Assembly: GCA_017996215.1 (NCBI GenBank)
Contig: JAGOHL010000017.1
Span: forward strand, 1-60,117
DNA from: Nannocystaceae bacterium
Lineage (GTDB): Bacteria > Myxococcota_A > Polyangia > Nannocystales > Nannocystaceae
Reading direction: 5' to 3'
DNA: 60,117 nt
The notes beneath the pieces were generated by a model. That model ran no database searches. It was not told where the DNA came from and worked only from the letters and a program-made list of their open reading frames with translations. Positions 4,428 to 60,117 of this stretch are shown in pieces; the first letter of the stretch is position 1; every line of letters starts with the position of its first letter. The position numbers were made by a program, and so were the translations under genes.

Positions 4428-5603
4428 ATGGCCCTCACGACGACCAGCCACGACATGACACTGGCGAGACAGCTGGCCTGGCAGGCGGCGATCGTCGAAT
4501 CGTGCCCTGACGCGATCATCGGCATCGATCTCGACGGGGTCGTCGTGAGCTGGAATGGCGCCGCGGCGCGATTGCTCGGGTACGCGTTCGCCGACATCGT
4601 CGGGCGACCGTGGCGAACGTTGCTGCGCACCCACTCGGGCGAGGAGCCCTGCGCGCGCATGGCCGACTTGCTCCAAGGTGCCCCTGGCAGCACCATCGAG
4701 TTGATCGATCGCACCGGCGCCCTCGTGGACGGCGTTGCGACGCTGTCGCCGATTCGCGATCGCTCGGACGCGACCATCGGCGCGTCGATCATCGTGCGCC
4801 CACCGGGCCGATGCGGGCCAACCGCCGACAACGACGAGTTCCTCTCGACGCTATCACATGAGCTGCGGGCGCCACTGCACGCGATACTCGGGTGGGCGCA
4901 GGTGCTGGAGCACTCGGCCACACCGTCCATGCGGCACGGACTCGCGATCATCGAGCGCAACGCGCGACTGCAGGCGCAGCTGCTCGAGGACCTACTCGAC
5001 GTCGGGCGGGGGAGCTCGGGCAAGCTACGCCTCGAGATCGCACCGGTCGATCTCGGCACCATCCTCTCGGAGCGCGTCGACTCGATTCGGCCCGCCGCCG
5101 AGGCCAAGCGGCTCGAGCTCACGCTTCGAAGTCCTTCGTACCATTGTGAGGTGCTGGGCGACGCCACGCGACTGCAGCAGGTACTCTGGAACCTGCTGTC
5201 GAACGCGGTTCGGTACACTGCGCCGGGCGGCCGCGTCGAGGCTTCGCTGCAGGGTGGGCCAAATGGATTTCGAATCGAAGTGACAGATTCCGGTGTCGGC
5301 ATCGATTCCGAGTTCCTACCGCACGTCTTCACCCGGTACGCGCAGGCGCATGCACCGACCGGTGAGCAGGGCGGTCTCGGGCTCGGCCTCGCCATCGCTC
5401 GACAGCTGGTCGAGCTACATGGAGGCACGGTCACTGCCGCGAGCGACGGCCCCGGCCGCGGCTCCACCTTCACGGTGACACTGCCGCGGGTGCCCGAAGC
5501 CCCGCGCCCGCGCATCGATCGACGCTCGAGCGCACCCGCGACCGTGGGCGCTCGAGCGTCGGGCGCCCACGGCCAGGCCCGCAGCCGCCTGCGCCCCGCG
5601 TGA
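4428..5603 (+). CDS. PAS domain-containing sensor histidine kinase (HisKA + HATPase_c)
   Basis: H-box LSHELRAPLHAILGW. N/G1/G2 boxes LLSNAVRYT, DSGVGID, GGLGLGLAI. PAS-like N-terminal region (CPDAIIGIDLDGVVVSWNGAAARLLGY). Start is ambiguous: in-frame candidates at 4353, 4428 and 4455, with 4428 chosen. Confidence 0.85.
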   Translation: MALTTTSHDMTLARQLAWQAAIVESCPDAIIGIDLDGVVVSWNGAAARLLGYAFADIVGRPWRTLLRTHSGEEPCARMADLLQGAPGSTIELIDRTGALVDGVATLSPIRDRSDATIGASIIVRPPGRCGPTADNDEFLSTLSHELRAPLHAILGWAQVLEHSATPSMRHGLAIIERNARLQAQLLEDLLDVGRGSSGKLRLEIAPVDLGTILSERVDSIRPAAEAKRLELTLRSPSYHCEVLGDATRLQQVLWNLLSNAVRYTAPGGRVEASLQGGPNGFRIEVTDSGVGIDSEFLPHVFTRYAQAHAPTGEQGGLGLGLAIARQLVELHGGTVTAASDGPGRGSTFTVTLPRVPEAPRPRIDRRSSAPATVGARASGAHGQARSRLRPA

Positions 5604-5651
5604 GCGTTCGGCCGCTCCATCGCGGACGGACGCTGCGTGTTCATCCGCTGC

Positions 5652-6386
5652 TCAGCACAGGCCGATGCCGAGGTCGCAGACGCACACCATCGACACGCAC
5701 TCGGCGGTGCAGCTGTCGGCCTCGCTGCAGCCGATGACGCAATCGCTGCCGCACGTCAGCGTACAATCGCTGCCGGTGTGACAGCTCTGATTGCAGCTCT
5801 CGGCGCAGTCGAACGTGCAGTCGCCACCATCGCAGCTCTGCTGGCAGTCCGCGCCGTTGCAGGTGAAGTCACAGGTCGCCCCGGCATCGCAGTCCTGCGG
5901 GCAGCCGCCGCCGTCGCAGCTGAACGTGCAGGTCGCCCCGGCCGCGCACTCCTGCTGGCAGCCACCACCCGAGCAGGCGAAGCTACAGACCTGACCGGAA
6001 TCGCAGATCTGGCCGCACCCGCCGGCGGGGCAATCCTCGCCCGCACCGGTCTCGGCACCGGTGGGATCGGTGTCACCACTGTCGCTGGTGTCGGCGCCGG
6101 TGTCGGCGGTGGTGCCGGCGCTCGTGCCGGCGCTCGTGCCCGCGCTCGTGCCCGCCGTCGTCCCGGCGCTCGTGCCCGCCGTCGTCCCGGCGCTCGTGCC
6201 CGCCGTCGTCCCGGCGCTCGTGCCCGCCGTCGTGCCTGCGCTCGTCTGCGAGTCGCCGGTGTCACCGCCATCGTCGGCGTCGTCGCCGGTGGTCAACACG
6301 CAGCCGCCGGAGGGCACTGCAAGGCCGAGGGTGAGCAGGGCGGGGAACAGCAAGGAGTTCAGGGGAGCGCGCAGCTTGGATGACAT
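5652..6386 (-). CDS. Secreted lipoprotein with (SAGTTAGT)n low-complexity linker and four Cys-rich repeats (C..GATC.F.C.GG.C.Q.C)
   Basis: Signal peptide and lipobox-like segment LLTLGLAVPSGGC. 12/24-bp DNA tandem repeats at ~6100-6260. Four copies of a Cys-rich module. Confidence 0.7.
   Translation of the reverse strand: MSSKLRAPLNSLLFPALLTLGLAVPSGGCVLTTGDDADDGGDTGDSQTSAGTTAGTSAGTTAGTSAGTTAGTSAGTTAGTSAGTSAGTSAGTTADTGADTSDSGDTDPTGAETGAGEDCPAGGCGQICDSGQVCSFACSGGGCQQECAAGATCTFSCDGGGCPQDCDAGATCDFTCNGADCQQSCDGGDCTFDCAESCNQSCHTGSDCTLTCGSDCVIGCSEADSCTAECVSMVCVCDLGIGLC
6100..6260 (-). repeat. 12-bp tandem repeat (ggcgctcgtgcc / ggcgctcgtccc) within the lipoprotein gene, ~12 copies
   Basis: Direct repetition in the sequence encodes AGTS/AGTT repeats. 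Confidence 0.8.
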
Positions 6387-6444
6387 TGCCGCGCGGTAGA
6401 GAACCGAGCGGGTCGAATCGATTGCGCCGCCGGTGTGGCGGCCG

Positions 6445-6922
6445 TCACGACCCGTCGCAGGCGAGCGCCTGGGTCGAGGGCTGCCACGGGTCGGGGGTCA
6501 CCGTGAACACGCGCTGCGTGGCCTCGCGCGTGCGCAGCACCAGCTCGCGGAGCTCGTCGTCGTCGTAGCCCGCTGCGATCCAACGCGAGCGCATAGACCG
6601 TGCGCGCGTCATCGATCGCGACCGGCGCGACCCCGCCGTACCGCGAACCACCGAGGTCGTCCCACCGCGTGAGCTCGTCGCCGCTCTCGGCATCGATGAT
6701 GCTCACCCACCGATCGATCGCGGACTCGTCGTACCTCGGCGAGACCGAGCCCTCGTCGACGCCACCGACTACGAGCCAGTGGCCATCGGGTGAGGCGACC
6801 GTCCCGATTCGGGCGAAGGGGAACCACCGCACCCACGTCGCCTCCGGCTCGTCCGCGGGTGTGCGGCACGCCAGCAGCCCGAAGAGGGCGACGACCGCGA
6901 CACGCCGATCCTTCGCGCGCAC
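6445..6922 (-). pseudogene. Hypothetical lipoprotein, apparent +1 frameshift (or sequencing error) near 6600
   Basis: GTG start at 6922 gives a textbook lipoprotein signal (M)RAKDRRVAVVALFGLLAC. Protein-like sequence (...IGTVASPDGHWLVVGGVDEG...TVYALAL) then continues in a different frame (WIAAGYDDDELRELVLRTREATQRVFTVTPDPWQPSTQALACDGS*, ORF 6445-6693). Total length 478 nt is not divisible by 3. Confidence 0.5.
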
Positions 6923-57198: not shown

Positions 57199-58518
57199 TC
57201 ACTGCACGTCGAGCGTGTACATGCCACCGGCGGCCGCGGTGACGAACACGAACGCATCGTCCTGCGCGCCGACCTCGAGCGAAGCACCGCCGACCGGATC
57301 GACCACCGTGATGGTGTCGGTGATCGTGAACGCGCGCGCGCCGATGCCCGCGCCCGTGGCGGTGATCGTCAGCGGGCCGGGACCGATGAGGCGGTACACG
57401 TCGAAGCCACCGGGGTACACCGCGCCCGTGGCCCCGTCGCCCGCCACGAGATCGCCCTCGCGCGCGACCTCGCCGACGTCGAAGGTCTCGAAGCCGTAGC
57501 CGAGCTCGGGGCGGTCGGCGATCATCGCGACACCCATGTCGAGGAACACCGTGAAGGCATCATCGTCACCGACACTGGCGAGCGCGGCGTCGAGGCCGGC
57601 CCAGTCGTTGGCTGCCTCGGCCGTGATCGCGGTCATCAAGGGCGCGCCGCCGCGCTCGTAGAGATACGTGCCCCACAGCAGCCCCGCGCCATAGTTGAAG
57701 GTGCCGAAGTCGACGCCACCGGGGCCCCAGTCCTGGTCGGGGTCGAGGCGGAAGTCGTCGAGCCACTCGTCGTCGGTGAAGAAGCCGTTGGCGCTCATCG
57801 CCGCCTCGGCCATGCTCTCGTCGATCCACGCCACCTCGTCGGCGTCGTAGCCGCGATGGATGATGTGGTAGCTCTCGTGCGCTGCGATCGACAGCGCGTC
57901 GTCGCCGTCGAGCGGCGTGAGCACGGTACCGTCGAGGTGCAGCTGGGCATAGTCGCACCAGCTGCACAGGTAGCCATCACCCCCGCCGTTGGTGTCGACC
58001 ACGAAGATCGCGACCTTGCCCCCGGGCAGGCCCGCGGCATCGAGCGAGCCGAACACCGCCTCGTCGTTCACGATCACGCCCCTCTCCGGATCGATCGATC
58101 CCGCGGGCGTGAAGAGCTCGTAGCGATGCATGAAGCCGGCGACGTCACTCTGATCGATGCCCTGCTCCCAGAGGTCGTCGGCGACGATCAGGAAGGTGCG
58201 CTCGCCCTCGGCGCGGCAGGTACCGCTGACCGACGAGATCTGGTGGGTCTGCCCATCGTAGACCTGCGTCGAGGCCGGCATGCCGTAGCACGGCGAGTCG
58301 GTGTAGTCGGGCAGTCCGCCGGTGGTCGTGCCGCCGCTCGAGTCGGCCGCACCACCGGACGATCCGCCCGAGCTGCTACCGGTGCTGCCGTCGTGGCCGC
58401 CACTCGACGACTCGCCCGTCGTCGGGCCCGAGCTGCCGCTGCCGACGTCACCCCCACCTCCGGTGTCCGCGCACGCGAACAGCAGCATCGACACCGGCAC
58501 GCCCATCATCCGTCGCAT
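57199..58518 (-). CDS. Secreted lipoprotein with HExxH motif (putative zinc metallopeptidase), Gly/Ser-rich linker
   Basis: MRRMMGVPVSMLLFACADTGG signal/lipobox. AAHESYHIIHRG contains HExxH. No further family assignment. Confidence 0.65.
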   Translation of the reverse strand: MRRMMGVPVSMLLFACADTGGGGDVGSGSSGPTTGESSSGGHDGSTGSSSGGSSGGAADSSGGTTTGGLPDYTDSPCYGMPASTQVYDGQTHQISSVSGTCRAEGERTFLIVADDLWEQGIDQSDVAGFMHRYELFTPAGSIDPERGVIVNDEAVFGSLDAAGLPGGKVAIFVVDTNGGGDGYLCSWCDYAQLHLDGTVLTPLDGDDALSIAAHESYHIIHRGYDADEVAWIDESMAEAAMSANGFFTDDEWLDDFRLDPDQDWGPGGVDFGTFNYGAGLLWGTYLYERGGAPLMTAITAEAANDWAGLDAALASVGDDDAFTVFLDMGVAMIADRPELGYGFETFDVGEVAREGDLVAGDGATGAVYPGGFDVYRLIGPGPLTITATGAGIGARAFTITDTITVVDPVGGASLEVGAQDDAFVFVTAAAGGMYTLDVQ

Positions 58519-58638
58519 GCCGCGAAGCCTACGCCGATCGCCCGTGCCTGCGCGATCGGATTGCTCCGCGCGTGCCAGGGGGCTAGCGTTACGACGCGAA
58601 CGACCTCGCGCGCGGGCGCGAAGTCACATGTCTCCGAG

Positions 58639-59217
58639 ATGGCGCGCGCGCGACAGTTCGACGTCGAGATCGCGACCGATGCAGCGGTCGAGCTGTTCTG
58701 GGACCGCGGCTATACGGCGTGCTCGGTCCGCGATCTGTGCGAGGCGATGGCGCTGCAGCCCGGCAGCTTCTACGCGGCCTTCGGCAGCAAGCAGGCCTGC
58801 TTTCGTCGTGCACTCGAGCGCTACCTCGCACGGGAGGCCGAGCGCAACGGACTGCTGCGAGGCCCCGGGCCCGAGGCCATCCGCGCGTGGCTCGACACCA
58901 TCGCGTCGCCGCGCCGACGCCACCGCGGCTGCCTGCTGGTGAACACCGCCGTCGAGGGGCCCCACCTCGACGCACCGACCCGCGCGTTCGTGGCCGCGCG
59001 CATGGCCGCGATGGAGCACTTCTTCACCGCGTGTCTGGGCGGCGGCCCCGACGCCCACCGCGGCGCGGCCCTGGTGTCGAGCACGGTGATCGCGATCCAC
59101 GTGCTGGCCCGCGCCGGCACCACCGCCCCCCACCTGCGCAGCCTCGCCGACCAGACCCTCGGCACGCTGCAGCTGCCGCTGCTCGGCGGTTCGCGACGCT
59201 CGGCCCGGCGGGCTTGA
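58639..59217 (+). CDS. TetR family transcriptional regulator
   Basis: HTH region AAVELFWDRGYTACSVRDLCEAMALQPGSFYAAFGSKQACF. 192 aa. Confidence 0.85.
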   Translation: MARARQFDVEIATDAAVELFWDRGYTACSVRDLCEAMALQPGSFYAAFGSKQACFRRALERYLAREAERNGLLRGPGPEAIRAWLDTIASPRRRHRGCLLVNTAVEGPHLDAPTRAFVAARMAAMEHFFTACLGGGPDAHRGAALVSSTVIAIHVLARAGTTAPHLRSLADQTLGTLQLPLLGGSRRSARRA

Positions 59218-59247
59218 CGATTCTTGAGCGATCGCTCAAGAATCGTC
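59216..59247. promoter_or_regulatory. Perfect 32-bp palindrome GACGATTCTTGAGCGATCGCTCAAGAATCGTC: candidate TetR operator and/or bidirectional hairpin terminator
   Basis: Seen directly. It begins inside the TetR stop codon and ends 4 nt before the DUF1304 start. 16+16 nt perfect dyad symmetry. Confidence 0.6.
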
Positions 59248-59251
59248 GCCG

Positions 59252-59593
59252 ATGGCCGCCACCGTGATGACCCTGCTGGTCGCGTTCCTCCACATCGTCT
59301 TCATGGTGTTCGAGACGTTCCTGTGGACGACGCCCGGCGTGCGACGCCGCTTCGGCCAGAGCGCAGAACAAGCCGAGGCCACCCGCGTGCTCGCGGCCAA
59401 CCAGGGCGTGTACAACGGCGCGCTCGCAGGCGCGCTGGTGTGGGCCACCACCGCCGGCGACGTGCCGGCGACCCGCGTGCTGCTCGGCTTCGTGATCGTG
59501 GTCGGGCTGTACGGCGGCTTCACGGCCAAGCGCAGCATCTTGGTGCTGCAGGCGCTGCCGGCCGCGATCGCGCTGGCGCTGACGCTGGTCTGA
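59252..59593 (+). CDS. DUF1304 family membrane protein
   Basis: 113 aa with 3-4 TM segments. Sequence pattern (VAFLHIVFMVFETFLW...RRRFG...NQGVYNGALA) fits DUF1304 from memory. Confidence 0.7.
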   Translation: MAATVMTLLVAFLHIVFMVFETFLWTTPGVRRRFGQSAEQAEATRVLAANQGVYNGALAGALVWATTAGDVPATRVLLGFVIVVGLYGGFTAKRSILVLQALPAAIALALTLV

Positions 59594-59681
59594 CGAGCGC
59601 AGCCGCGAGCCTGCTCGCGACGGCCCAAATCGGTCCGCGGCTTGCCGCCCATGGCCACCGCGTTATCTCTCGATCGCGGCC

Positions 59682-60117
59682 ATGGCATCACTCGTCCAGC
59701 TCCAGCGCCGCCCCGGCGATTCCCCCGCGTCGTCACGTCCGGCCAAGGTGCTGCTCGTCTCGCCGCGCTACAGCTCGTCGTACTTCCCGATTGGCTTGGC
59801 CTACGTCTCTTCGTACATCCGCCAGTGCGGACACGAGGTCGTGGCGTGCAACCTCAACCACCACGATCACGACGCAGGTCGGGCCGAGCTGGCCCGGCTG
59901 CTGCGCGAGCACGCATTCGACGCCATCGGCATCACCGGGCTCACCGTCGCGTTCAACGCGATCGAGTCGTTGATCGAGTTCCTGCGCCCCCGCTGCGCTG
60001 CGCCCATCGTGCTGGGCGGCGGCATCACCTCGTGCGAGAGCGAGCTGGTGATGCGGACGCTGCGACCGGACTACATGGTCGTGAGCGAGGGTGAGCTGAT
60101 CTTCCGCGATCTGCTGG
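59682..60117 (+). CDS. B12-binding domain radical SAM protein, N-terminal fragment (runs off the window end)
   Basis: Open frame from ATG 59682 to the window end with no stop; it is not in the ORF track because it is incomplete. KVLLVSPRYSSSYFPIGLAYVSSYIRQCGHEV...FDAIGITGLT is the typical cobalamin-binding N-domain of class B radical SAM enzymes. Confidence 0.65.
   Translation, partial: MASLVQLQRRPGDSPASSRPAKVLLVSPRYSSSYFPIGLAYVSSYIRQCGHEVVACNLNHHDHDAGRAELARLLREHAFDAIGITGLTVAFNAIESLIEFLRPRCAAPIVLGGGITSCESELVMRTLRPDYMVVSEGELIFRDLL

Follow-up and report, generated by a model that had tools for sequence, protein, structure and literature searches.

The DNA analysed here, a stretch of 60,117 nucleotides from a Nannocystaceae bacterium (assembly GCA_017996215.1, contig JAGOHL010000017.1; hereafter the window), ends with three co-directional genes, which encode a TetR-family repressor, a DUF1304 membrane protein and a class-B radical SAM enzyme. 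The first two are separated by a perfect 32-nt palindrome, which comparison of sequences indicates to be, with good probability, the operator of the TetR encoded directly upstream. The features that bear on this assignment are as follows.

58639..59217, plus strand: tetR, encoding a 192-aa CifR-like TetR-family repressor (PF00440, E 3e-12; ortholog profile against CifR)
59214..59219, plus strand: -35-like hexamer TTGACG, which includes the tetR stop TGA (59215-59217) (promoter scan; TTGAC at the same offset in orthologous loci)
59216..59247, no strand: palindrome, proposed operator (conserved in 17 loci; weight-matrix score 45.9 bits)
59219-59244: symmetric 26-bp footprint
59222-59241: conserved 20-bp core, TCTTGAGCGATCGCTCAAGA
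59238..59243, plus strand: -10-like hexamer AAGAAT, contributed by the palindrome's right arm and separated by 18 nt from the -35-like hexamer (promoter scan)
59252..59593, plus strand: DUF1304 gene, the proposed and conserved target of the repressor, encoding a 113-aa membrane protein with four long helices (PF06993, E 1e-31)

The palindrome, GACGATTCTTGAGCGATCGCTCAAGAATCGTC, was delimited by reading the sequence and by pattern search, and has its dyad centre between 59231 and 59232 (local sequence ...GGGCTTGACGATTCTTGAGCGATCGCTCAAGAATCGTCGCCGATGGCC...). Its first base is the middle one of the tetR stop codon, and 4 nt (59248-59251) lie between its last base and the DUF1304 ATG at 59252. These results agree with an earlier note on this DNA, made from the sequence alone, which had described the 16/16 dyad symmetry and both boundaries and had considered the element too perfect for chance. 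No further match with up to three mismatches was found in the window and none in 100 shuffles, and the 22-nt core of the palindrome is likewise single-copy in the window. It has A/T-rich flanks, ATTCTT and AAGAAT, while the genome as a whole is ~75 % GC. Scored with a weight matrix derived from the Myxococcota sites, the palindrome reaches 45.9 bits, against 9.7 bits for the runner-up in 70 kb and a shuffle maximum of 5.5. Sequence beyond the window end was taken for this purpose from contig GCA_020051655.1 JAHZTJ010000327.1, the coordinates of which equal those of the window, giving ~70 kb in all. With such a gap between the best and the next score, the element is no local repeat, and the generic REP-like (repetitive extragenic palindromic) repeat that the earlier note had named as speaking against an operator was not encountered in these 70 kb. 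In four independent Logan assemblies of the same organism (L003-L006), contigs begin 34-35 nt before the DUF1304 ATG, that is, within the palindrome (~59217-59218). Logan assemblies use a k-mer of 31, and these contig starts are likely an assembly artefact caused by de Bruijn-graph breaks at perfect palindromes longer than the k-mer.

The tetR product has an N-terminal TetR-type helix-turn-helix (HTH) domain (PF00440, E 3.2e-12, 46.5 bits against a cutoff of 24). The match to TetR_C_13 is borderline, at 26.5 bits just below the cutoff of 27. A profile of 25 orthologs aligns with CifR of P. aeruginosa (6NSN; E 2.5e-26, residues 2-172) and also with 2I10 over the same residues (E ~1e-26), and these full-length alignments support an all-helical C-terminal ligand-binding/dimerisation domain despite the sub-cutoff TetR_C_13 score. 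The pair G97-C98 is invariant in the 25 orthologs and is aligned with G106-C107 of CifR, C98 falling in the column where the C107S structure 6NSM has its Ser. Conservation is at least 90 % at R3, R5 and F7, which by alignment correspond to R4, R6 and F8 of CifR. The recognition helix reads PGSFYAAF in the window protein and PPSLYAAF in CifR. More generally, although the observation is anecdotal, proteins associated with TTGAR...YTCAA sites share PGS[FIL]YA as their recognition-helix motif, the counterpart in CifR being PPSLYA. An identical TetR is labelled by NCBI as coming from a 'Deltaproteobacteria bacterium' metagenome-assembled genome (MAG), and the nearest relatives are from Nannocystaceae and other Myxococcota MAGs. 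The TetR and DUF1304 assignments of the earlier note are thus both upheld by the domain matches. The AlphaFold2 model of the DUF1304 protein is of high confidence (predicted local distance difference test score, pLDDT, 96.6), and its structure comparison returned generic four-helix bundles only; in the papers found to mention DUF1304, it appears in expression tables only.

A promoter scan of 58400-59800 yielded one sigma-70-like site, TTGACG-18-AAGAAT, which brackets the palindrome (0.1 expected). The DUF1304 ATG follows 8 nt after the -10, and no Shine-Dalgarno sequence precedes it. To see how this arrangement is kept elsewhere, the contexts of TetR orthologs (47-98 % identity) were collected and the metagenome collection was scanned with the ortholog alignment. 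Sites resembling TCTTGARCGATCGYTCAAGA lie beside the DUF1304 start codon in 17 distinct Myxococcota loci. In these loci, a TTGAC-like hexamer is found 13-18 nt to the left of the dyad centre, and in 16 of them the ATG or GTG of DUF1304 lies 17-20 nt to the right. At the position of the right-arm -10, orthologous loci have the A/T-rich hexamers AAGAAT, AAGATA, AAATAT and AAGAAA. DUF1304 starts in the loci with the 17-20 nt spacing have no Shine-Dalgarno sequence. Because the distance from dyad to start is fixed and a Shine-Dalgarno sequence is absent, the DUF1304 mRNA is likely leaderless. At locus L212, the DUF1304 protein of which does not differ from the one in Sandaracinus amylolyticus, the same operator is present, the ATG is 29 nt from the centre and there is an AAGGAG Shine-Dalgarno sequence. 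Such spacing together with a ribosome-binding site is consistent with a transcription start just past the right arm and with leaderless mRNAs in the other loci. Moreover, tetR is divergent in four loci (L008, L015, L016 and L018), yet the site remains at the DUF1304 start, and is therefore part of the DUF1304 promoter rather than of the tetR 3' end.

The pattern of substitutions in the 17 aligned sites is informative as well. Four of the 14 pairs of positions never vary, and 30 of the 34 half-sites have a purine 4 nt from the centre. At positions 11-13 from the centre, changes occur on both sides and dyad symmetry is retained. Symmetry extending that far is what a symmetric dimer with a ~26-bp footprint would give, and it is also compatible with pairing.

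The motif accompanies the regulator outside DUF1304 loci too. A scan of a 596-Gb genome collection with the pattern CTTGARCGATCGYTCAAG found at least 120 loci, where by our own calculation ~35 chance matches are expected. Among the matches listed, a gene for a CifR-like HTH protein is within 900 bp of 41 of 121 sites and within 300 bp of 34. The sites near such genes belong to Alpha- and Gammaproteobacteria, Myxococcota and Streptomyces, the organisms including Ruegeria, Alteromonas, Vibrio, Aurantimonas, Methylocystis, Streptomyces, Sandaracinaceae, Nannocystaceae and Polyangia. Many of the sites without a nearby CifR-like TetR are cyanobacterial; the core of these matches, GCGATCGC, we take to be the abundant HIP1 repeat. 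In marine metagenomes, distant TetR homologs (30-46 % identity) have T[AC]TTGAG[CT]GATC[AG]CTCAAGT ~56 nt upstream of their own start, frequently with a second copy 24 nt away, and DUF1304 is not nearby. The palindromic site thus co-occurs with the regulator gene across genomes, and comparison of these loci places its association with this TetR subfamily far above chance. A literature search for the motif strings found no paper. The suggestion of the earlier note that the palindrome is sized like a TetR-family operator therefore gains strong comparative evidence, since the motif tracks both the DUF1304 start and the TetR subfamily across phyla.

Several of the individual sites deserve mention in their own right. 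Among the marine metagenome loci, one contig was inspected (L045:2440-2500). There the gene divergent from that of the distant TetR homolog encodes a peroxidase-related protein, which has a CxxC motif of the AhpD type, and two operator copies stand on either side of a TATATAAT box, a layout that fits an oxidant or electrophile stress theme for the TetR subfamily. In Sandaracinaceae and Nannocystaceae MAGs (L101:3490-3560 and L205:2310-2380), paralogous CifR-like TetR genes are divergent from an open frame that is alpha/beta-hydrolase-like by eye, with two tandem operators ~24 bp apart (e.g. TTTTGAGGGACCGCTCAAAAAGTTCTTGAGCGATCGCTCAAGA), which mirrors the two-site layout between cifR and morB. 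The site CCCCCGTCTTGAGCGATCGCTCAAGGAGGACGT recurs in at least five Streptomyces genomes (L113:6210; also L127, L173, L188 and L207). At L113, the one examined, it is upstream of a different TetR-family gene (open frame 5410-6195, minus strand), so the same core may serve another TetR subfamily, and it also adjoins a small open frame (6321-6764, minus strand) that is DUF77/YkoF-like by eye. Finally, in the Sandaracinaceae MAG JBILQT01 the exact 18-nt operator core occurs four times, each time on a separate contig (L161:7287, L169:842, L189:5309 and L208:5919), all copies sharing TCTTGAACGATCG[TC]TCAAGAATG[AG]. One copy precedes a DUF1304 gene without tetR nearby, and two are within long open frames, where they read LERS[LF]KN. 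These copies may reflect a larger regulon or a dispersed element, and may be operators or coding coincidences.

We propose that a TetR dimer would bind the ~26-bp site 59219-59244, filling the spacer of the DUF1304 promoter (TTGACG, 18 nt, AAGAAT) and overlapping its -10. Judging from the geometry of the site within the promoter, bound TetR would exclude RNA polymerase from it. The transcription start would probably coincide with the ATG at 59252 or be only a few nt from it, so that the DUF1304 mRNA would be leaderless. Promoter occlusion and the leaderless start, as read from the sequence, are somewhat favoured over other ways in which the site might act. Furthermore, covalent modification of Cys98 by an epoxide, another electrophile or an oxidant might release TetR and turn DUF1304 on. 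This last step is suggested by analogy with CifR and by residue conservation only, and we regard it as tentative, its chances falling a little short of even.

A number of observations weigh against an operator that acts in this manner. The motif is absent from some ortholog loci (L019-L022), and a DUF1304 gene of Paraliomyxa is without both tetR and the motif. The -10 hexamer AAGAAT fits the consensus at four of six positions, that consensus being the one of E. coli, which describes Myxococcota promoters poorly. The weight-matrix scan detected no second operator upstream of tetR, and autoregulation of tetR, usual for TetR repressors, is consequently unexplained in the co-directional layout. 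The operator arms are TTGAG in the window and TTGTAT in CifR, so the analogy with CifR is structural rather than one of sequence identity. Lastly, the element as RNA would form a very stable hairpin (-43.2 kcal/mol, z -4.2) that could also act on read-through transcripts, a possible side effect.

The alternative that fares best accepts the operator and differs in the target. It supposes that the relevant target is the class-B radical SAM gene and that the three genes form a TetR-controlled modification operon. The downstream features are these.

59594..59681, plus strand: 88-nt spacer between the DUF1304 and radical SAM genes (no operator, no promoter-like site, fold z-score -0.43)
59682..60117, plus strand: 5' part of the gene for the class-B (B12-binding) radical SAM enzyme (complete protein, 673 aa; neighbour of DUF1304 in this species alone)

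The full 673-aa protein, read from the contig beyond the window, has a B12-binding domain (PF02310, E 5e-15), a Radical_SAM domain (PF04055, E 1.5e-18) and a CxxxCxxC-type motif, CPFRCTFC, in agreement with the enzyme class given in the earlier note. Since the spacer holds neither a promoter-like site nor a significant fold, co-transcription with DUF1304 in this species is possible, and the same gene order is found in a 97-98 % identical relative (L011). Beyond this species and L011, however, the radical SAM gene is absent from every TetR-DUF1304 locus examined. The protein reaches no NCBIfam equivalog cutoff, including those of families for ribosomally synthesized and post-translationally modified peptides (RiPPs), and its best partial matches are BchE, ladderane-type, PhpK, HpnJ and ApyD. 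The next gene is convergent, with weak matches to SinM and DUF5050 (beta-propeller-type), and no precursor peptide, transporter or partner enzyme was found at the locus. The RiPP or small-molecule modification locus surmised in the earlier note, which had proposed looking beyond 60117 for just such partners, is therefore unsupported, given that adjacency of the radical SAM gene to DUF1304 is confined to this species and that its next neighbour is convergent. By these comparisons the gene is not part of the conserved TetR-DUF1304 unit, it may be co-transcribed with DUF1304 in this species, and a role as the relevant target is unlikely, if still a serious candidate.

Two further observations concern the neighbouring proteins. 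The radical SAM protein has beyond the window end a C-terminal extension of ~240 aa (L001:11850-12050) with two CxxC pairs (CPSC...CDAC), which is zinc-ribbon-like and covered by no family model. On the other side of the locus, divergent from tetR, is a gene at 57199-58518 (minus strand). Its product, of 439 aa, begins like a lipoprotein, has a linker rich in Gly and Ser, and weakly matches MXAN_6640-type HExxH metalloproteases (E 5e-4); the gene is not kept beside the TetR-DUF1304 pair elsewhere.

A more elaborate view gives the palindrome two jobs. It would be a DNA operator in the promoter of a leaderless mRNA and, at the same time, through its overlap with the tetR stop codon, a road-block on tetR, with the hairpin silencing read-through transcripts and with DUF1304 and the radical SAM enzyme forming an electrophile response. 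With the element overlapping the stop codon, polymerases near the end of tetR could be halted by bound TetR, and tetR would then limit itself through non-stop transcripts. If this were so, DUF1304 would be translated only from the derepressed internal promoter, the radical SAM gene would be on the same transcript, and the two would constitute a previously unrecognised membrane response to thiol-reactive electrophiles. So many parts would have to hold together that we consider it improbable.

Still less probable is a role at the level of RNA, in which a 14-16-bp hairpin would terminate or attenuate transcription after tetR, as the earlier note had also entertained, or would mask the DUF1304 start region and limit translation. 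The stability of the hairpin and its end only 4 nt before the DUF1304 ATG are in line with this, as is the commonest combination 4 nt from the centre, G with T, which would be a G-U pair in the sense RNA. The stem is followed by GCCGATGG and not by a T/U run, the scan found no terminator-like sites, and for want of a U tract a terminator role is unlikely. The element is also at the DUF1304 start in the four divergent-tetR loci, hence not between regulator and target on one RNA, and upstream of tetR genes in many other taxa. Furthermore, the core is conserved as sequence, beyond what pairing calls for: the invariant pairs and the purine preference described above are unlike free covariation, and Rfam gave no match for the element. 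Finally, a generic dispersed palindrome (REP-like, a restriction-site cluster or a recombination site), or a site of another protein beside tetR by coincidence, could be argued from the four exact 18-nt cores in one Sandaracinaceae MAG, two of them inside long open frames, from the roughly two-thirds of the genome-scan sites among the matches listed that have no CifR-like TetR nearby and from the same core in front of a different TetR in Streptomyces, but it is the least credible of all, since the element is single-copy in 70 kb of the source contig, its link with the TetR subfamily is far above chance, it holds a constant register with the -35, the -10 and the start codon, and many of the unassociated sites are attributable to chance (~35 expected) or to cyanobacteria.

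Taken as an operator, the palindrome provides a testable consensus (TCTTGARCGATCGYTCAAGA, ~26 bp with flanks) for the CifR-like TetR subfamily of Myxococcota, marine Proteobacteria and Streptomyces. It also links the uncharacterised DUF1304 family with a repressor related most closely, among those studied, to one that detects epoxides and thiol-reactive compounds via one cysteine, which suggests where the function of DUF1304 may be sought. In addition, a false lead is removed, as the radical SAM gene is outside any conserved regulated cluster.

Overall, the arrangement is a standard bacterial repressor-operator switch. Classical pairs such as TetR/tetO, QacR/IR1 and RutR (with its TTGACCANNTGGTCAA box) are usually divergent and autoregulated. 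The window system is like them, by analogy, in that a homodimeric HTH repressor would act through a palindromic operator over an adjacent promoter and be released by a ligand. It is unlike them in that the operator lies at the tetR 3' end inside an internal promoter, with no site before tetR. NemR of E. coli (PDB 4YZE), a cysteine-based sensor of electrophiles and bleach, belongs to the same TetR_C_13-type group, and JGI labels orthologs of the window protein as 'repressor of nem operon'. However, the match to NemR is much weaker than that to CifR (profile E 5.5e-7), and the NemR operator (NemR box) and targets (nemA, gloA) differ from those of the window.

The best solved homolog of the window TetR is CifR (PDB 6NSN, 6NSM and 6NSR). 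A single CifR dimer occupies a site for which 23-27 bp are required, and Arg4 and Arg6 of its N-terminal arm enter the minor grooves of the A/T-rich flanks (PMC10827105). Cys107, of the conserved Gly106-Cys107 pair, is required for the response to epoxides, and CifR leaves DNA in the presence of N-ethylmaleimide, an effect that the authors ascribe to the modification of Cys107 (PMC10827105). In sequence the window protein resembles CifR, having the Gly-Cys pair (G97-C98 against G106-C107) and the N-terminal Arg-x-Arg residues (R3/R5 against R4/R6), which may read the A/T-rich flanks in a like manner. The layout is different. CifR has two sites between cifR and morB (PMC10827105), in a divergent intergenic region, whereas in the window one site follows tetR in a co-directional layout and overlaps the tetR stop codon; the two-site layout recurs in the paralogous and marine loci. 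The targets differ too, the DUF1304 membrane protein in the window and the operon of morB, a major facilitator superfamily transporter and an epoxide hydrolase in the case of CifR, and neither an epoxide hydrolase nor morB was found near the window locus. For comparison of the operators, the CifR 26-mer TTATTTGTATCGATCACTATAAATTT was rebuilt from the cifR-morB spacer of a P. aeruginosa contig. It agrees with all the bases named in the preprint, T2, T4-6, T10, C11, C15-T18 and A23 (PMC10827105), and is identical to the centred 26-mer of the window, GATTCTTGAGCGATCGCTCAAGAATC, at 13 of 26 positions. Both operators are symmetric over ~26 bp, with a central CGATC[A/G]C and A/T-rich flanks. Thus, with a shared centre and flanks and different arms, the window element would represent a CifR-type architecture with a different sequence specificity.

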